DNA of 25,491 nt from Planctomycetota bacterium (GTDB lineage Bacteria; Planctomycetota; UBA1135; UBA2386). This document shows positions 3,145-11,652 of this stretch, piece by piece (position 1 is the first letter of the stretch; each line of letters begins with the position of its first letter). The notes under the pieces are model-generated. The model worked only from the letters and a program-made list of their open reading frames with translations. It had not been told where the DNA came from and did no database searches. The stretch lies in contig DATGPD010000155.1 of assembly GCA_035305285.1 (NCBI GenBank), positions 1 through 25,491 on the forward strand, given 5' to 3'. The position numbers and the translations under genes were made by a program.

Positions 3145-4182
3145 GTGGTGCAGTTCCAGGACTACTACGCCGTGCTCGGCGTCCCGCGCGACGCTTCCGC
3201 CGAGGACATCAAGAAGGCCTACCGCAAGCTCGCGATGCGGTGGCACCCCGACCGCCACCCGGAGAAGGAGCGCCCCAAGGCCGAGGCGGAGTTCAAGAAG
3301 ATCAGCGAGGCTTACGAGGTGCTCTCCGATCCGAACAAGCGCAAGCGCTACGACCAGCTCGGCGCGCGCTGGCAGGAGGGCGAGCAGTTCGCCGGCGACG
3401 CGGGCTGGCGGCAGGTCGATCCGGAGGAGTTCGCGCGCATGTTCGGCGGCGCGAGCGCGTTCTCGGACTTCTTCACCCGCTTCTTCGGCGACCAGATGGG
3501 GCGCGACGTGGGCTGGGGGCCGCGCCGGCACGCGCGCTACGCCGAGCGCGGCGCCGACGTGCGCGCCACGCTCGAGCTGACCGCGGACGAGGCGATCGCC
3601 GGCGGCAAGCGCGAGTTCTCGCTGACCGCCACGGGCCCGTGCGCGCGCTGCGGCGGCGTGGGCTTCCTCGGCGATCACGTCTGTCCGGCGTGCGCCGGGA
3701 TCGGCACGGTGCGCACCACGAAGACGGTCGCGCTGAAGATCCCCGAGGACGTGCGCGACGGGCTCACCGTGCGCCTGCGTGGGCTGGGCGAGCCGGGCAC
3801 CGACGGTGCCGAGCCCGGCGACCTGCTGCTGACGATCCAGTTGACGCCCGGCGAGGTCTACCGCGTGCGCGGCTCGGACGTGGAGGCGGACGTACCGGTC
3901 ACGCCGTGGGAGGCGCTGCACGGCACCCAGGTGGAGGTGCGGACCGCGCGCGGGGTCGCGACCGCGCGCGTGCCCGCCGGCAGCCGCGCCGGCAGCAAGC
4001 TCCGCCTGCGCGGCCAGGGCCTGGCGAACGCGGCCGGCGGGCACGGCGACTTCTACATCGTGCTCCGCTACGCCCTGCCCGAGCCGCTCAGCAGCCGGCA
4101 GCGCGAGCTGCTGGAGCAGATGGCGGCGGCCGGACCGGGGCGGGTGACCGGCGGCGCGCGCATCGACGGAGGCGGGTCATGA
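3145..4182 (+). CDS. cbpA: DnaJ-family chaperone, CbpA (curved DNA-binding protein)-like
   Basis: J-domain (QDYYAVLGV, WHPDRH), G/F-rich linker, C-terminal DnaJ_C region (GDLLL, VTPWEALHG, LRLRGQG); followed by a cbpM-like gene. Confidence 0.85.
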   Translation: MVQFQDYYAVLGVPRDASAEDIKKAYRKLAMRWHPDRHPEKERPKAEAEFKKISEAYEVLSDPNKRKRYDQLGARWQEGEQFAGDAGWRQVDPEEFARMFGGASAFSDFFTRFFGDQMGRDVGWGPRRHARYAERGADVRATLELTADEAIAGGKREFSLTATGPCARCGGVGFLGDHVCPACAGIGTVRTTKTVALKIPEDVRDGLTVRLRGLGEPGTDGAEPGDLLLTIQLTPGEVYRVRGSDVEADVPVTPWEALHGTQVEVRTARGVATARVPAGSRAGSKLRLRGQGLANAAGGHGDFYIVLRYALPEPLSSRQRELLEQMAAAGPGRVTGGARIDGGGS

Positions 4183-4424
4183 CCTCGGCCGAGGTGCGCT
4201 GGATCGCCTTCGAGGCGGTCGCGCGGATCTACCGGGTCGACGTGGAATGGTTGCTGCGTGCGGAGGACCTCGGCGTGCTGCCGAACGTCGAGCGGCGCGC
4301 CGGCACGGCGCTCCTGCCCGCCGACGACCTCGACCGGGTCGCGGCCGCGGTGCGCTGGCACCTGCACTTCGGCGTCGACCTCGACGTGATCGCCGCGTTG
4401 CTGAGCGAGGTGCCGCGGCGGTGA
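4179..4424 (+). CDS. Chaperone modulator CbpM-like small MerR-type protein
   Basis: 81 aa, ATGA overlap with cbpA. MTSAEVRWIAFEAVARIYRVDVEWL...DLDRVAAAVRWHLHFGVDLDVIAALL fits the CbpM/MerR_2 pattern and its usual gene context. Confidence 0.72.
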   Translation: MTSAEVRWIAFEAVARIYRVDVEWLLRAEDLGVLPNVERRAGTALLPADDLDRVAAAVRWHLHFGVDLDVIAALLSEVPRR

Positions 4425-4446: not shown

Positions 4447-5691
4447 CTAGAGGTCGAGCCCGTGGGCCGGCAGGTAGCGCGTGCGTACGCGCTTGCCGGA
4501 CGCGATGAACACCGCCTCGAACTGTTCGGGCGTGCTGCCCGGCCCGCTCCCGGTGAGCCAGGCGAGCAGGCGGCGCGCGGACGCGACGACCTCGGGGTCC
4601 TCGTCACGCGCGACCAGCGACACCAGGATCCCGACGCAGCGCTCGTCGCCCTGGCGCACGAGGCAGCGTGCCGCGAGCAGGCGCTCCTGCGGCCCCATCC
4701 CGGGCACACGTGCCACCAGCGCCTCGGGGTCGGCGGCGCCGTGCGCCTCGAGGCAGTGCAGCGCGAACACGCGGAGCGCCTCCGGCGCGAGGTCGTCGCT
4801 CGCGACCTTCCACACCGCGGTCGCGTGGTCGAGGACCTTCTCGTTGTGCACGAGGAACTCGAGTGCCGCGCGGCGAACCTCCTCGGCCCGGTTCTGCAGG
4901 CAGCTGACCGCCAGCTCGGCGTGGTCGTACTCGAGGTCGCGCGCGAGCGCGCGGAGCGCCTGCGCGGCGGCGCGCGGCTCGCCGTGGGTGACGAACACCA
5001 GCACGCGCTCGCGCAGCGCGGCGCTCGGCCGCTGCGGGAACGCGCGCACGGCCAGCTCACCCTCCTCGCGGTCGTCGGAGAGGAGCGAGCGCATCAGCAG
5101 GTCGTCCGGGATCGTCCCGCCGTCGCGCGCGATTGCGGCGAGCATGCCGAGGCGCGCGCCGCGGTCCTCGCTCTGCAGCAACTCCGCGATCTGGTCGGGG
5201 TCGATGGCGCGCAGGGCGTGTGCGACGCCGATCGCCGCGGCCCGGAGGCCGCCGCCACCGCCGCCGCCACCCCCGCCGCCGACGGCGATCGTGTACGGGA
5301 TCTCGCGCGCCTCGAGCACGCGCGCGCATTCGAGCAGAGCCTTGCGCTCGCGGCCGTCGGTCGTCTTGCGCAGCAGCGCACCGATCGCCTGCTCGAGCGC
5401 GGCGCGATCCTCGCTCGCGCGCAGCCGTTCGAGCAGGCGGGCGCGGTCGCCGGGATGCCACGTGCGCGCGAGCTGCACGACCGCGGCGCGCAGCCGTGCC
5501 TCGGCGGGCGGCGTCGGTTGCACGCGCTCGCGCACGACGATCTTCGGGCCGTTGAGCATCGCCGACCAGGCGAAGCCGGCCGCGGCGACCAGGCTGAACA
5601 CCATGCCGACCCGCGTCCAGCGCACCTGGTCGATGCCCCGGCGCGGCGCATCCGGCTGCGGCGGCGCCGCCTTCTGCCTGCGCGTCCTCAT
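4447..5691 (-). CDS. HEAT-repeat protein with N-terminal TM anchor (last gene of left pilin operon, D1)
   Basis: Basic N-terminus, TM segment VGMVFSLVAAAGFAWSAML, repeated helical units (EEVRRAALEFL, AAAQALRALA, VVASARRLL), Gly11 linker; ATGA-coupled to the upstream PilX-like gene. Confidence 0.75.
   Translation of the reverse strand: MRTRRQKAAPPQPDAPRRGIDQVRWTRVGMVFSLVAAAGFAWSAMLNGPKIVVRERVQPTPPAEARLRAAVVQLARTWHPGDRARLLERLRASEDRAALEQAIGALLRKTTDGRERKALLECARVLEAREIPYTIAVGGGGGGGGGGGLRAAAIGVAHALRAIDPDQIAELLQSEDRGARLGMLAAIARDGGTIPDDLLMRSLLSDDREEGELAVRAFPQRPSAALRERVLVFVTHGEPRAAAQALRALARDLEYDHAELAVSCLQNRAEEVRRAALEFLVHNEKVLDHATAVWKVASDDLAPEALRVFALHCLEAHGAADPEALVARVPGMGPQERLLAARCLVRQGDERCVGILVSLVARDEDPEVVASARRLLAWLTGSGPGSTPEQFEAVFIASGKRVRTRYLPAHGLDL
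5248..5280 (-). repeat. Poly-glycine coding tract, 11 GGN codons
   Basis: Minus strand reads GGC GGC GGG GGT GGC GGC GGC GGT GGC GGC GGC. Confidence 0.9.
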
Positions 5692-6789: not shown

Positions 6790-7419
6790 TCAGTTGTTGC
6801 GCAGGAACACCGAGCGCTGCAGCACGGCGCGCTCGACGCCGCCGTCACCGCCGCGGCGCGCCACGCCGATGCGGATCTGCAGCACGCGGCCCTCGAGCAT
6901 GAACTGGCAGTGCTCGACGTTCGGCAGGACGGCGACGCGCGTGCCTTCGTGCAGGAGCACGATCTGGCCCTCGTCGACCATCCCGTCGCCGTCGTCGTCG
7001 AGGTCGTTGTCGACCTCGCCCGGATCGAGCACGAAGTCGATCTCGCGCTGCGAGGTGCTGAGCCGCGCGTTCATCGACAGCAGGCCGGAGGCGGACAGGA
7101 AGCGCAGCCCCGGCCGCCACACCAGGTCGCTCGGCTCGATCCACTCGCCGACCGCCGACGCCAGGCCGAGCGCGACGTCGCTGGCCACCGCGCGCATGCG
7201 CAGGGTCGACATCTTGCAGCTCTGCGCGAACTCGGCGGTGGTCTGGAACGCGCGCTGCAACTGCGCCATGCACTGGCTGGACGTCGCGTTGCTGTCCACG
7301 GTCTTGCCGACCGTCTGGGTGAGCTGCACCGCGCCGAGCAGGAGCGGCAGCAGGAATGCGACGCCGAGCAGCAGCTCGAGCATCGACACGCCGGACTCCG
7401 CGTTCGTCCTGTCGCTCAC
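6790..7419 (-). CDS. PilW/GspJ-like minor pilin (B1)
   Basis: GTG start in a GTGA overlap; NAESG|VSMLELLLGVAFLL prepilin motif with Glu5; DDDGDGMVDE loop; ends LRNN. Confidence 0.8.
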   Translation of the reverse strand: MSDRTNAESGVSMLELLLGVAFLLPLLLGAVQLTQTVGKTVDSNATSSQCMAQLQRAFQTTAEFAQSCKMSTLRMRAVASDVALGLASAVGEWIEPSDLVWRPGLRFLSASGLLSMNARLSTSQREIDFVLDPGEVDNDLDDDGDGMVDEGQIVLLHEGTRVAVLPNVEHCQFMLEGRVLQIRIGVARRGGDGGVERAVLQRSVFLRNN

Positions 7420-7877
7420 GAGCGGCGCTCCCCGATCAGGCCGATGACCCTCTCGCGGCGGTTGCCCGCCGCGCCGCGCCACGCCACGGTGACCGTCACG
7501 CGATAGAGCACGGTCGATCCGCCGCTCGCATAGACCGCGACCTGGATCTCGCCGGGCAGGCCGTCGGGATCGCCGGGCTGGGCGGTCAGGCCGCCCGGCC
7601 CGCCGAGATGGTTCGGGACGTCGAAGCCGGTCCCGTGCAGCGAAGGGAGGTCGGCGAACGGCAGCCCGCGCAGCCGGGCGAACACGTCGGCGATCGCGTT
7701 GTTCGCGAGCGTCGTCTCATGGTTGACCGCGCGATGCGCGCTCTGCCGCACGCTGGTCGTCACCAGCGCGCCGCCGACGATCAGCGCCACCCCGCACGCC
7801 ATCATCAGGTCGAGCAGGATCGCGCCGCGTTCGTTCGCGGGCGTCTGCGGTCGCGATTCGGTAGGGACGGCGTCCAT
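7416..7877 (-). CDS. PilV/GspI-like minor pilin (A1)
   Basis: NERG|AILLDLMMACGVALIV hydrophobic helix and C-terminal LYRVTVTVAWR strand typical of PilV/GspI. Start uncertain (ATG 7877 or ATG 7919). Confidence 0.72.
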   Translation of the reverse strand: MDAVPTESRPQTPANERGAILLDLMMACGVALIVGGALVTTSVRQSAHRAVNHETTLANNAIADVFARLRGLPFADLPSLHGTGFDVPNHLGGPGGLTAQPGDPDGLPGEIQVAVYASGGSTVLYRVTVTVAWRGAAGNRRERVIGLIGERRS

Positions 7878-8224
7878 CTCCAGCGGCTCTATCGAGCGCC
7901 GGCCGTCGCGGACGTGCATCGTTCCTGGCGCGCGACCCGGGCCGCGGTCCGGACCGGCGGCGGCATGGCGGCTTCCCGCGCCCCGCTCCGCAGTCGCAGA
8001 GCGAGAGGATGCGCCGGCGCGGCAGCGCGCAGCACGAGGGTGCGGCTGCGCCGTCCCGCTCCGGACAGCTGTGGCCGGTCGGCACGCCCACGTGTCTCGT
8101 TCTGCGCCGGGCGCGTTCGCGCCGTCGGCACCGCGGGTTCGCCGCCGTGTCGCGCACGAGCGCACGGACGGGTGAGCCGGATCCCGTCACCCTTGCCGCG
8201 CTGCGGTCGATGAGGACAGACGAC

Positions 8225-8758
8225 ATGGGCTGCACAGGCCGCAAATCGTGGCGTGGCGCGCGCGGGCGGGACGAGCCGGCGCGCGCGGGCAGCGTGCGGA
8301 AGGACCTCGACCGCACGCGGGCCGCGGCGCACGCACGCGGCCGCGAGGCGGGCAGCTCGCTGGTCGAGGTCATGGTCGCGCTCGCCGCGAGCGCGGTGGT
8401 CATCGGCGCCCTCCTGAGCGGCGTGGTCGCGCTCAACGCGCAGCGCAAGCTGCGCGAGGAGCGCATCCTCGCGCAGATCGCCTGCCGCAACGTCCTCGAA
8501 GAACTGCGGCGGACGAGCATCGAGGACCTTCCTGCGGCGGACGGCCGCGGCTTCGCGGTGCCCGGGATCGGCGGCACGGGCAGCGGCCTCGCGTGCGTGC
8601 CCGGCGACCCGGACGGGCTGCCCGGCGAGGTGCGGGTCGTGCCCGAGCGCGTCTGGGGCGGCGAAGTCCTCTACCGGGTGACCGCCGTCGTCGAGTGGCG
8701 GCGGGGCCGCGGCTCGGCGCGCGCCCAACTGACCACATTGATGGGAAGGCGGCGATGA
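8225..8758 (+). CDS. PilV/GspI-like minor pilin (A2)
   Basis: REAG|SSLVEVMVALAASAVVIG motif, LYRVTAVVEWR; paralog of A1 (shared PGDPDGLPGE). Start uncertain (ATG 8225 with AGGA upstream, or ATG 8210, or GTG 8294). Confidence 0.78.
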   Translation: MGCTGRKSWRGARGRDEPARAGSVRKDLDRTRAAAHARGREAGSSLVEVMVALAASAVVIGALLSGVVALNAQRKLREERILAQIACRNVLEELRRTSIEDLPAADGRGFAVPGIGGTGSGLACVPGDPDGLPGEVRVVPERVWGGEVLYRVTAVVEWRRGRGSARAQLTTLMGRRR

Positions 8759-9384
8759 AGGCGGACGCCGGCCACGAAGCGGGAACGTCGCTGGTGGAGG
8801 TCGTGGTCGCGGCGTCGATCCTGCTCGTGGTCCTGGTCGCCGTGGGTTCGACCGCGGAGACCGCCAGCCGCACGATGCGGACCAACGACGAGCGCGCCGC
8901 GACCACCGAGCGCATGCTGCGCTTCCTGCAGCGCGTGGCGCCGATGACCCGGGCCGGCGTGCTGTCCACCTACCGGGTCGAGGCCACCGTCGCAGACCTG
9001 TCGGCGGATCGCGCGAGCGCGCCGGGCGAGTGGATCGAGCCCATCGACGGCGAGCCGCGCGCGGCGATCCGGTTCCAGGCGGCGGACGGCAACCTCGCGC
9101 TGCGCGCCGGGTCGCTGACCGCGCCGATCGTGCTCCGCTACGTGCGCGACCCAGCGGAGGCCACGGGCGCGCCCGGGATCGACGACGACGGCAACGGCCT
9201 GATCGACGACGGCCGCATCGTGCTCGTGCACCAGGGCGTGGAGACGACCGTGGCGACCGGGGTGGAGGAGTGCTCGTTCACGCTCGAGGGCGCGTCGCTG
9301 GTCGTGACCCTGCGGGCCGCGCGGCGCCGGTCGACCGACCCGCCGCTGCAGTTCGAACAGGTCCACGTGCTGCGCAACAACTGA
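8755..9384 (+). CDS. PilW/GspJ-like minor pilin (B2)
   Basis: ATGA overlap; HEAG|TSLVEVVVAASILLVVL; GEWIEP and DDDGNGLIDD shared with B1; ends LRNN. Confidence 0.82.
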   Translation: MKADAGHEAGTSLVEVVVAASILLVVLVAVGSTAETASRTMRTNDERAATTERMLRFLQRVAPMTRAGVLSTYRVEATVADLSADRASAPGEWIEPIDGEPRAAIRFQAADGNLALRAGSLTAPIVLRYVRDPAEATGAPGIDDDGNGLIDDGRIVLVHQGVETTVATGVEECSFTLEGASLVVTLRAARRRSTDPPLQFEQVHVLRNN

Positions 9385-9403
9385 TCGGAGGAGGAAGGCT
9401 GCG

Positions 9404-10498
9404 ATGGGGGACGCCAGGATCGTGCGGGGGACGCAGGACGGTGCGGCGCTGGTGATGCTGGTCGTCGTCCTCGTGCCGGTCGTGACCCTGTTCGGCGGCT
9501 TTGCGCTCGCGATGCACGCCCGCGACCTCCGTCTGGACGAGGACATCGCGCGCGAGCGCTGCTTCTGGATTGCCGAGGGCGGGATCGACGACGCGATCCA
9601 CCGCGCATCGGCCGGCCTGCTTCCGGCCATCGGCATGCTGTACGAACTGGACCTGGGCGGGGGCGCCACCTGCACGGTCAACGCGATCGCGCTCGGCGGC
9701 AACGGCATCGACGACGACGGCGACGGCATGGTCGACGAGGCGGACGAGGACCTGCTGGAGGTGCACAGCATCGGCCGCTACCGGCGCTGGCAGCGCGAGC
9801 TCGTGACCTGGCTCGGGCGCGTGCCGTTCCTCCCCGACCTCGGCGCGCCCGCGGTGGTCGCGAGCCCGAGCACCGACGTGGACCTGGGCGGCACGCCGCG
9901 GCTGGACGGCCGTGACCACGACCTCGACGGCAGCCCCGGCGATCCGGCCGAGGCGCGCGCCGGCCTCGCGATCATGACGCCGGGCACGGTCGCCGACCTA
10001 GCCGCGCGCCTGACCGGCGGTGAACCGGACGCGGTGCTCGGCGCGGGCGGCACGCCGAGCCTCGCCCAGGTGCCGTCCTTCGACGTCGTCGAGCTGGCGG
10101 CGCGCGTGCGCAACGTCGCCAACCTGGTGCTCACCAACACCACGTACGCCGACCTGCAGTTCGGCAACGCCGAGACCGGAACCGGCCTCGTCACCTTCCG
10201 CGAAGGCGACCTGCACCTGACCGGCAACAGCCGGGGCGCCGGGATCCTGGTGGTGACCGGGGACTTGGTGATGAGCGGCACGTGCCGGTTCGACGGCGTG
10301 ATCCTCGTGCTCGGTAGCCTGGAGAACGCCGGCGGCACGGCGCAGGTGTACGGCGCGGTGGTGCTGGGGCCGGGCGCGGGCAGCCTGCGCGCGGCCGGCA
10401 CCTTCGACCTGCGCTACAGCGTCGCGGCGACGCGGTTTGCCGACGGACTGGTCGGGCGTTACGCGACCTTCAACGGATGGCAGGAGCTGGCGCGCTGA
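9404..10498 (+). CDS. PilX/GspK-like minor pilin with a large C-terminal domain (C2)
   Basis: SD GGAGGAGG; TQDG|AALVMLVVVL without Glu5; ARERCFWIAEGGID; ends FNGWQELAR versus FNGWQELSR in C1. Confidence 0.82.
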   Translation: MGDARIVRGTQDGAALVMLVVVLVPVVTLFGGFALAMHARDLRLDEDIARERCFWIAEGGIDDAIHRASAGLLPAIGMLYELDLGGGATCTVNAIALGGNGIDDDGDGMVDEADEDLLEVHSIGRYRRWQRELVTWLGRVPFLPDLGAPAVVASPSTDVDLGGTPRLDGRDHDLDGSPGDPAEARAGLAIMTPGTVADLAARLTGGEPDAVLGAGGTPSLAQVPSFDVVELAARVRNVANLVLTNTTYADLQFGNAETGTGLVTFREGDLHLTGNSRGAGILVVTGDLVMSGTCRFDGVILVLGSLENAGGTAQVYGAVVLGPGAGSLRAAGTFDLRYSVAATRFADGLVGRYATFNGWQELAR

Positions 10499-11652
10499 TG
10501 GCGATGCGCCGGGCGGGAGCAGCGTGCGCGCTCGTCGCGCTCGCCGGGGCGTGCGCGCCGCGGCCGGCCCCGGCACCGGCGGCCCGCGAGGCCGGTACGC
10601 GGGTGGTGCGCGCGGTGCGCGAGCTGCGCGGGGCGATCTCGCCGCGCGCGCGGCGCAACGTGCTCGCGCGCCTGCGCGCGGACGCGGCGGAGTGGTCGGC
10701 CGCGGTCGGCTCGGTCCTGCGCAGCCCGCGGCATCCGGCGTTCGCCGAGGCGGCCGAACTGGCGCGCGAGTTGCCCGTGCCGGCGGCCGCCGAGGCGCTG
10801 CTGCGTCAGGCCGAGGACTCCGGCGCGCCGCACCGTGCGCTCGCGCTCCGCGCCGCGCACGCGATCGCGCCGCTGCCCGCGGAGGTGCTCGTGCCCTTCC
10901 TGTCGGAAGGGGACCCGGCGGTGTGCTGCGCCGCGCTGGCGGCGTTCGCCGGGCGGAGCGACGTGCCGTTCGCGATGGTCGCGCGGCTGCTCGACGCCGA
11001 CGACCCCGAAGTCGCCGCGGCGGCCGCGGCCGCGTTGCCGGCGGTCCTCGACCGCGAGCAGGTCGCGGTCCTGTGCCGGGTGCAGTTCGCGAGCGAGCCG
11101 GCTGCGGTGGCCGCGATCACCGAGCTGGGCAAACGGGCGCTGCCGCCGGAGCTGCTCGCGCGCTGGCTGCAGCGCCTGCCGGTGGAGACGCCTCCGGTGC
11201 AGCGGGCGATCCTGGGCGCGGCGCTCGCCCGGCCGCAGCGCATCCCGCGCGAGCCGCTGCTCGCGCTGGTGCGGGCGAGCGGCTCGGAGGAAGTGCGCGC
11301 GGCGGCGCTGCACGCGCTCCTCGCCGGGCGCGCGCTCGACGCGGTCGAGCTGCGCGCGCTGGCGGGCGCGGACGACGGCGCGGTGCGCCTGCTGTGCGCG
11401 GCGGGCCTCCTGGAGCTGGGCGAGCGCGACGGTGCGGTGCTGCTCCACCGCCTCGCGTTCCCGGGCGAGGAACAGCTCGACGGCCTCGCGGTCGCGGCGC
11501 GCCAGGCGCTCTCGGCCGCGGCCGACCTGCCGCTGCACCGCGGCGAAGCGGCGTTCGCGGCCTGGTGCCACGAGCCGGGGCCGCTGCGCGTGCGCGCCTC
11601 CCCGGTCGCGACGGTCGCCGGCGTGCTGCGTTCGTGCGTGCCGGATCCGTGA
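10498..11652 (+). CDS. HEAT-repeat probable lipoprotein (last gene of right pilin operon, D2)
   Basis: TGATG coupling to C2; MAMRRAGAACALVALAGAC lipobox-like signal (Cys19); helical repeats DPAVCCAALAA, DPEVAAAAAAAL, SEEVRAAALHAL. Confidence 0.75.
   Translation: MAMRRAGAACALVALAGACAPRPAPAPAAREAGTRVVRAVRELRGAISPRARRNVLARLRADAAEWSAAVGSVLRSPRHPAFAEAAELARELPVPAAAEALLRQAEDSGAPHRALALRAAHAIAPLPAEVLVPFLSEGDPAVCCAALAAFAGRSDVPFAMVARLLDADDPEVAAAAAAALPAVLDREQVAVLCRVQFASEPAAVAAITELGKRALPPELLARWLQRLPVETPPVQRAILGAALARPQRIPREPLLALVRASGSEEVRAAALHALLAGRALDAVELRALAGADDGAVRLLCAAGLLELGERDGAVLLHRLAFPGEEQLDGLAVAARQALSAAADLPLHRGEAAFAAWCHEPGPLRVRASPVATVAGVLRSCVPDP

Follow-up and report, generated by a model that had tools for sequence, protein, structure and literature searches.

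Priming complexes of minor pilins and PilY1 are central to the initiation of type IV pili, to adhesion and to the stop of retraction. To our knowledge, all of the examples studied come from Pseudomonadota, Myxococcota, Thermus or Firmicutes. Here we analyse a locus in a stretch of 25,491 nucleotides of DNA from an uncultured Planctomycetota bacterium (GenBank assembly GCA_035305285.1, contig DATGPD010000155.1), which we call the window. The window carries two cassettes of four genes, A to D. The products of A, B and C look like the pilins of a pilus tip. The D genes, D1 and D2, encode HEAT-repeat proteins and are the subject of this work.

Two described systems come close to this arrangement. 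The first is the complex of PilY1 with a priming or tip set of minor pilins, found in Myxococcus xanthus (clusters 1-3) and in Pseudomonas aeruginosa (fimU-pilVWXY1E) (PMC7541494). The second is the ComZ-PilA2 tip of the competence pilus of Thermus thermophilus (PDB 6QVI; PMC6561018). What stands in the place of PilY1 in the Planctomycetota cassettes? The original prediction, made from the letters of the window, was that HEAT-repeat proteins occupy the PilY1 position behind a pilX-like gene, that the two copies use different membrane anchors, and that they act as a periplasmic chaperone or assembly platform for the tip complex. In a full-text search of the literature on minor pilins and HEAT repeats we found no description of such a HEAT partner; among the papers listed, HEAT was mentioned only in one on a Xanthomonas genome.

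We find that the likeness to PilY1 holds for gene order only. The fold is all-alpha, and the location probably differs as well, most D proteins being membrane-tethered. We propose, with a probability of about 50%, that D works close to the membrane, as a chaperone of the tip pilins or as a platform for their priming. The minor-pilin priming or tip module is known; its dedicated HEAT accessory protein is novel. The non-pilin partner in these uncultured Planctomycetota is a different kind of protein, a HEAT solenoid that faces the periplasm and is kept at the membrane.

Results

D1 and D2 belong to one family

The cassettes lie head to head and were defined by codon-position GC and homology. Their features are as follows (class III sites are written with a bar at the cleavage point).

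D1, 4447-5691, minus strand: 414 amino acids; basic N-terminus, one transmembrane (TM) helix, HEAT domain.
C1, 5688-6773, minus strand: 361 amino acids; paralogue of C2.
B1, about 6790-7395, minus strand: paralogue of B2; class III site G|VSMLE; start codon not fixed.
A1, 7416-7877, minus strand: paralogue of A2; class III site G|AILLD.
Intergenic region between the divergent cassettes, 7878-8224, no strand.
A2, 8225-8758, plus strand: small GspI/PilV-like pilin-like protein; class III site G|SSLVE; alternative start GTG at 8294.
B2, 8758-9384, plus strand: GspJ/PilW-like pilin-like protein; class III site G|TSLVE.
C2, 9404-10498, plus strand: 364 amino acids; cap-type pilin-like protein without Glu5.
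D2, 10498-11652, plus strand: 384 amino acids; predicted HEAT/ARM solenoid of about 11 helical hairpins, preceded by a lipoprotein signal and a tether rich in Pro and Ala.
Predicted signal peptide and lipobox of D2, 10498-10554, plus strand: residues 1-19, L-A-G-A-C19.

The extents first given for D1 and D2, and their coupling to the preceding cap-pilin genes, were right: both are exact open reading frames (ORFs) that overlap the stop codon of C. D2 runs from the ATG at 10498 to the stop codon at 11650-11652, with an in-frame ATG at 10477 as an alternative start, and it shares one base with the TGA of C2 at 10496-10498 (TGATG). In the other cassette, the TGA of C1 and the ATG of D1 overlap by four bases (ATGA). 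The GC contents of the three codon positions (0.88/0.59/0.94 in D2, 0.81/0.52/0.95 in D1) fit coding sequence.

Direct comparison of D1 with D2 by BLASTP yields an E value of 1e-4. A profile made from 57 relatives, leaving out D1, D2 and the close kin of both, matches D1 at 1e-60 and D2 at 3e-58, each over its full length. When the D1 group is aligned to the D2 group with hhalign, the probability is 98.5% (E 2e-15, 285 columns). These two results bear out the homology claimed earlier. The hhalign comparison also reproduces the alignment first proposed for the N-termini, and the one proposed near the C-termini is consistent with the family alignment, where C343 of D1 stands opposite G303 of D2. 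Judged by these profiles, D1 and D2 are full-length members of one family of about 400 amino acids.

How large is this family? A phmmer search with D2 over 1.8 billion cluster representatives returned 72 proteins at E < 1e-3, mostly of 380-430 amino acids, and the sole name given to D-family proteins in any source is 'hypothetical protein'. Of the 78 sequences in our scan, about 40 share the signature L-x2-L-x3-W-x-P-x2-R-x-R-x-L, located in the helix that comes first behind the anchor. D1 is among them, and D2 shows the degenerate form G-A-I-S-P-R-A-R-R. Two weak matches to D2, P0030 and P0066, lie among other HEAT genes and lack the W-x-P-x3-R core; they mark the edge of the family. When the phylum was searched with the D profile, 288 of 301 genomes gave matches to generic HEAT proteins, so that this search is uninformative on the specific D family.

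Identity between the paralogues of the two cassettes is 41% for A, 34% for B, 45-46% for C and about 30% for D. Values this low point to an old duplication of the cassette, with D as its fastest-evolving member.

D proteins are HEAT solenoids

The HEAT assignment is weak by Pfam and firm by structure and profile. HEAT_2 (PF13646) matches D1 at 26.8 bits and D2 at 12.3 bits, both under the gathering threshold of 27.7; D homologues carry precomputed PF13646 matches. An AlphaFold2 (AF2) model of D2, built from a 67-sequence alignment, has a pLDDT of 92.8 and a pTM of 0.86. It contains 23 helices: an N-terminal hydrophobic helix and 22 others. In the PDB, the top Foldseek matches of this model are AP2-beta, PP2A-A, alphaRep, importin-alpha and designed armadillo proteins; in AFDB they are HEAT-repeat clusters. 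The D-family profile matches alphaRep and HEAT chains in the PDB with E values down to 6e-42, and an Atlas structure search with D1 gives HEAT clusters at TM-scores up to 0.68. We are confident in the model's prediction that D2 is an all-alpha HEAT/ARM solenoid.

One peculiarity of D1 is a run of 11 glycines at residues 137-147 (5249-5281, minus strand), encoded by imperfect GGC/GGT/GGG repeats and lying in a loop between HEAT repeats. The homologue P0006 has eight glycines at the same place and the other homologues have none. In metagenome runs this stretch draws many unrelated GC-rich contigs.

D is linked to the pilin-like genes

If the minor-pilin cassette has D as its dedicated partner, D homologues should keep the company of pilX-like genes. 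In about 25 distinct Planctomycetota cassettes D adjoins A-B-C, with flanking genes that vary among the cassettes. We retrieved loci from contigs of one genome per species with the C alignment, no stretch of the D alignment being conserved enough. In all 15, which come from Planctomycetota metagenome-assembled genomes (MAGs), the gene immediately downstream of C is D. Upstream of C, 13 of them show A and B, and one of the other two loci ends at a contig edge. Among loci fetched from relatives, a strong D match stands beside C in 10 of 11; in the eleventh (L058, G036:C22:1-7000) the order is D-A-B-C. A further order, B-C-HEAT-A, occurs in L081 (8605707-8620897 of a 9.18-Mb contig), where the HEAT protein has 230 amino acids and a Sec signal peptide. 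Because of these permuted orders, we consider the HEAT gene integral to the cassette rather than a terminal add-on.

Starting from D leads to the same arrangement. Five diverse members, with E values to D2 or D1 from 1e-95 to 9e-5, sit in A-B-C-D cassettes whose proteins measure 128-147 (A), 205-218 (B), 354-370 (C) and 380-412 (D) amino acids. The contig of P0081, reached through a homologue of C2, holds the same cassette, and its D is P0010, on that same 24,528-bp contig. At the C-D junction, homologous cassettes have a 4-nucleotide overlap or a gap of 3-10 nucleotides. Glycosyltransferases, a toxin-antitoxin pair, thiE, queA, cytochromes and kinases are found around different D cassettes; the annotated flanks that we read include no pilus machinery and no secretin gene. 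In the more distant cassettes L081, L060, L061 and L062, a shorter HEAT protein of 230-250 amino acids comes after a C-like gene. Thus D is adjacent in every complete cassette examined.

The distance matrices of C and D over 26 cassettes correlate with r = 0.74, a value that none of 2000 Mantel permutations reaches; the cassette is therefore inherited as a unit. The mean distance is 0.75 for D versus 0.61 for C. Adjacency, varied flanks and co-divergence all support the view of D as a dedicated partner.

D is exported and usually tethered to the membrane

Our anchor assignments rest on pattern and charge rules. Residues 1-19 of D2 fit the PROSITE-type rule {DERK}(6)-[LIVMFWSTAG](2)-[LIVMFYSTAGCQ]-[AGS]-C: R4 and R5 lie in the n-region, residues 6-18 are uncharged, and the segment ends in L15-A16-G17-A18-C19. 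The lipobox recurs in the closest relatives of D2, P0009, P0011 and P0046, where the cysteine keeps its position and a linker rich in Pro and Ala comes next. D2 is a predicted bacterial lipoprotein by these rules. D1 has eight Lys or Arg residues ahead of a hydrophobic segment at residues 28-49. The two copies do, then, carry different anchors, a lipobox in D2 and a basic N-terminus with a TM helix in D1.

The N-terminus of D1 that is predicted to be cytoplasmic (residues 1-27; 5610-5691, minus strand) includes the sequence G-I-D-Q-V-R-W. Just before the TM helix, the motif [RG]-[FIL]-[ND]-[QE]-[VYI]-x3-[RK] occurs in 16 of 67 family members, D1 included (the others include P0004-7, P0022, P0024, P0031, P0034, P0041, P0044, P0045, P0059, P0065 and P0072). 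Conservation at this position implies a contact in the cytoplasm.

On which side of the membrane is the HEAT domain? An N-terminal hydrophobic segment is present in 63 of the 67 members. Over all 67, the net charge is +2.3 before the segment and +0.3 in the 15 residues after it, a bias that by the positive-inside rule makes the HEAT domain extracytoplasmic. In L081 the short HEAT protein begins with a textbook Sec signal peptide. These signals, together with the lipobox of the D2 clade, support a predicted extracytoplasmic, periplasmic HEAT domain and speak against a cytoplasmic one, as had been expected. Across the 26 cassettes we count 16 plain signal anchors, 6 TM helices with the cytoplasmic motif and 3-4 lipoboxes. 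The periplasmic domain stays constant and the type of anchor is labile, the difference between D1 and D2 being one instance of this.

A, B and C resemble the subunits of a pilus tip

A2 matches N_methyl at 21.9 bits (cut-off 21.2) and gspI at 23.8 bits, the latter under its cut-off. The N_methyl match of B2 is weak, and its paralogue B1 matches TIGR01711 (gspJ) at 19 bits, also under the cut-off. Both A and B have the class III signal: Gly-1, a hydrophobic helix and an acidic residue at +5, which is Glu5, but Asp5 in A1. The C proteins are without Glu5 (G|AALVM in C2, G|FALVL in C1), as GspK and PilX likewise are (PMC7541494). Neither C1 nor C2 matches a Pfam family above threshold, PilX_N included (C1 has one chance-level match), and the match of C1 to the GspK N-terminus reaches 12.9 bits against a cut-off of 130.

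The AF2 model of C2 (pLDDT 92.4) comprises an N-terminal helix of 58 residues (12-69), a beta head, an Asp-rich loop and a C-terminal beta-helix. Its closest full-length matches in AFDB are proteins with a PilX_N domain (TM-scores 0.56 and 0.58, E 7e-13); it also matches TadG-like proteins (TM-score 0.59). The beta-helix alone matches a bactofilin-like fragment at a TM-score of 0.84. In the PDB the top match, a weak one, is ComZ (6qvi), followed by ice-binding beta-helices. On this model, C is a fair candidate for a cap minor pilin of the GspK/PilX/ComZ class, and its beta-helix could serve as a tip module. The name 'pilX-like', used in the original prediction, is fair as a structural class; C is nearer to PilX_N-domain and ComZ-type pilins with a beta-helix of their own than to classical PilX.

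Two stretches of C stand out by conservation. The Asp-rich loop D-x-D-x-D-G-x2-D-x2-D-E (C2 residues 100-115, 9700-9750; C1 6438-6455) is invariant or nearly so in 60 C homologues, the residues concerned being D100, D103, D105, D107, G108, D111, D114 and E115. It is probably a calcium-binding site, as in GspK. The extreme C-terminus, F-N-G-W-Q-E-L, is almost invariant too (N357, G358, W359, Q360, E361) and forms the last beta-strand of the C2 model. Its coding sequence (10466-10495 in C2, 5691-5720 in C1) overlaps or abuts the start of D.

C-like genes also come in tandem. Two genomes of family f8, G043 and G050, have 8-9 C-like copies each and line up two or three of these cap-pilin paralogues at a time (loci L054, L055, L060 and L061); a short HEAT-like ORF closes two of the four arrays.

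Surroundings, machinery and occurrence

The window has a G+C content of 73%, and the MAG from which it comes is 65% complete. Each cassette terminates at D and converges on an unrelated gene. Downstream of D1 is a small ORF (4185-4424) behind a gene for a DnaJ/CbpA-type chaperone; downstream of D2 is aroB, from 11713 onward. The DnaJ/CbpA-type co-chaperone gene occupies 3145-4182, and the 80-residue ORF that follows, ending at 4424, resembles the modulator CbpM by position and sequence and has no Pfam match. The intergenic region at 7878-8224 contains no recognisable regulatory element; a scan for the sigma-54 consensus found no match there, and its repeats are chance noise of GC-rich DNA. No Rfam family matches the window at the gathering threshold.

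Machines for such pilins exist in related genomes, which contain one or two prepilin peptidases, 13-18 T2SSE ATPases and 6-7 secretins. In one genome of the same genus (G002:C4:585800-614200), a cassette at about 610-614 kb lies some 17 kb from a cluster of a secretin, a weakly PilN-like gene and a T2SSE ATPase (585-594 kb). We treat this proximity as coincidence, as it does not recur in the other contexts examined.

Near-identical copies of the locus (8225-11652) turn up in metagenomes of compost and soil, in at least seven different studies dated 2017-2025. One DNA run has the locus within a single 19.9-kb contig and is a possible origin of the present DNA. The organism is thus widespread in compost and soil habitats. 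A manure metatranscriptome yielded one 228-nucleotide contig on C2 (9435-9662, one mismatch), a hint of expression that is too little to claim it.

Discussion

How D works

We regard the fold of D, its homology, its export signals, its tethering, its strict linkage and its co-divergence with C as established. What might such a protein do for a pilus tip? HEAT/ARM solenoids are protein-binding scaffolds. We propose that the D solenoids are exported across the cytoplasmic membrane and usually stay tethered to it, as the fourth co-inherited component of a self-contained pilus-tip or priming cassette. At the outer face of the inner membrane, the solenoid would bind the pilin heads of its own cassette, most plausibly that of the large C subunit. 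D would hold or pre-assemble A-B-C as a priming complex. A type IV pilus or a machine like that of type II secretion, encoded elsewhere, would then take up A-B-C, and D would stay behind rather than become part of the filament.

The anchors favour this role, because a membrane-proximal factor of this sort works whether it is lipid-anchored, TM-anchored or soluble. Each of the three anchor types suits an assembly factor that works close to the membrane, and none allows the protein to leave the cell on a filament.

If D does chaperone or load the tip complex, it is a new component class in type IV filament biology and a handle on fibre biogenesis in the Planctomycetota. The family is compact (about 400 amino acids, with W-x-P-x3-R), linked to its clients and modelled with confidence, and is directly amenable to work on interactions and topology.

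Several points weigh against this proposal. We infer, rather than observe, that D binds A, B or C, that it acts as a chaperone or platform, and that it is not incorporated. Linked genes co-diverge anyway; the correlation of C with D is a mark of shared inheritance, not of contact. Some of the 'signal anchors' may be cleaved signal peptides, and some short homologues are soluble proteins of the periplasm that could travel with the tip. Three solitary C-like paralogues (L049, L056 and L057) have neither A and B nor a HEAT gene nearby, and no machinery is consistently near the cassette. A conserved pair of cysteines (columns 436 and 468) considered as a periplasmic disulphide finds no support: both occur in 30 of 67 members, with 28.8 expected by chance.

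Other explanations

Could D choose the machine instead? The peptide at the N-terminus of D1-type proteins might dock on a PilM/GspL-like protein or on an ATPase while the solenoid holds the tip pilins, so that one tip cassette is delivered to one of many type IV filament machines. With 13-18 T2SSE ATPases and 6-7 secretins in related genomes, specificity is a real problem. A conserved cytoplasmic motif stands directly ahead of the TM helix (16 of 67 family members, 6 of 26 cassettes), and a short N-in tail, one TM helix and a periplasmic domain make up the topology of the PilN/GspL-type alignment proteins. The N-terminal peptide of PilN binds PilM. Yet most D proteins, D2 included, have neither this motif nor any cytoplasmic part, and the motif therefore cannot be the core function. 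Nor is there any conserved linkage to machinery genes, and PilN itself is barely detectable in the related genomes (a single sub-threshold Pfam match, 19.6 bits). We consider both a docking role for D and the sorting of tips among machines unlikely.

A bolder version, in which exported HEAT solenoids are a new class of type IV filament component, cassette-specific loaders whose D1-type peptide plugs the tip module into the chosen machine, strikes us as equally doubtful. If true, it would explain which tip goes on which filament in bacteria with a dozen or more ATPases and several cassettes.

Alternatively, D might be a functional analogue of PilY1 that is released from the membrane, by signal peptidase or in another way, and rides outward on top of C, the cap pilin, to act as an adhesin or a receptor. 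Its gene stands behind the cap pilin, solenoids bind ligands, and the short homologues have cleavable Sec signal peptides. D also evolves faster than C (0.75 versus 0.61), as surface-exposed adhesins often do. The Pfam model for PilY1 finds nothing in five related genomes, though the control genomes are silent too, so that absence is not established. The anchors argue otherwise: most hydrophobic segments of D span about 17-25 residues with no obvious cleavage site, the D proteins of 6 of 26 cassettes carry the conserved cytoplasmic motif and would be retained in the membrane, and the D2 clade is predicted to be lipid-anchored. With most forms of D tethered, a PilY1-like ride on the pilus tip is improbable, and the beta-helix of C could itself be the tip module.

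The lipid anchor of D2 raises the question of whether D is instead a pilotin-like or docking lipoprotein of the outer membrane, an alpha-solenoid counterpart of the TPR pilotins PilF, Tgl and TadD, which aids secretin assembly or receives the tip there. The pilotins known so far are lipoproteins built of helical repeats, a lipid anchor is predicted for D2 and a few relatives, and the residue at +2 in D2 is Ala, which by the Lol rule of E. coli (untested in Planctomycetota) would sort it to the outer membrane. But a lipobox occurs in only 3-4 of 26 cassettes, the others having N-in membrane anchors, and in the contexts read D is linked to pilin genes and never to a secretin gene. We give this explanation very little credence.

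That D is an unrelated HEAT neighbour, placed there by chance or local history, is scarcely credible: generic HEAT proteins are indeed matched by the D profile nearly throughout the phylum, and P0030 and P0066 lie in other contexts, but these two lack the signature, and every motif-bearing or cassette-derived D examined sits in a cassette with varied flanks, overlapping or nearly overlapping frames and co-divergence.

Comparison with known systems

The PilY1 systems resemble the Planctomycetota cassettes most in their layout. Both have a compact set of the GspI/J/K type, a cap pilin without Glu5 and one non-pilin partner right after it, and both occur as several paralogous sets per genome with the machinery elsewhere. 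The partner itself is different. PilY1 is a soluble protein of about 1,000 amino acids with a beta-propeller and vWA domain, whereas D is an anchored, all-alpha HEAT solenoid of about 400, and neither D1 nor D2 matches PF05567 (T4P_PilY1). The cassette is also without a FimU/GspH or PilE gene.

ComZ shares with C a large beta-solenoid built into the frame of a cap pilin, and it is the top PDB match of C2. However, this match is weak (E 7.5e-4, TM-score about 0.2), a HEAT gene is missing from the Thermus operon, and nothing here indicates DNA binding.

The GspI-GspJ-GspK tip of the type II secretion pseudopilus has the same order of small, medium and large subunits, and A, B and C give weak NCBIfam matches to gspI, gspJ and the GspK N-terminus. 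The invariant DxDxDG loops of C are Asp-rich as in GspK; we take them to recall its calcium sites. These NCBIfam matches are far under their cut-offs, however, and no type II secretion genes adjoin the cassette. In operons for type II secretion, gspK is followed by gspL, whose product carries an actin-like domain in the cytoplasm rather than a solenoid.

Pilotins (PilF/PilW, Tgl and TadD) are, like D, alpha-helical repeat proteins of the cell envelope that serve type IV filaments, and some D proteins, D2 included, are predicted lipoproteins as well. Pilotins, though, are built of TPRs, reside at the outer membrane and act on secretins, whereas D is of the HEAT type, mostly has an N-in TM anchor and is linked to pilins; D1 and D2 have no TPR matches. 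Bitopic proteins of the PilN/GspL type are similar to D in topology and differ in the periplasmic domain, ferredoxin-like in them and a HEAT solenoid in D, which places D outside that group.

TfpY, TfpX and TfpZ (FimB-like) of Pseudomonadota are membrane-anchored accessory proteins encoded beside pilin genes (PMC11841053). TfpY is unlike D in its three TM helices, in its periplasmic domain, a small alpha/beta one, and in being encoded next to the major pilin, and it is unrelated to D in sequence and fold. The proposal made for TfpY in Pseudomonas is nevertheless the closest functional precedent for the role we suggest for D (PMC11841053).

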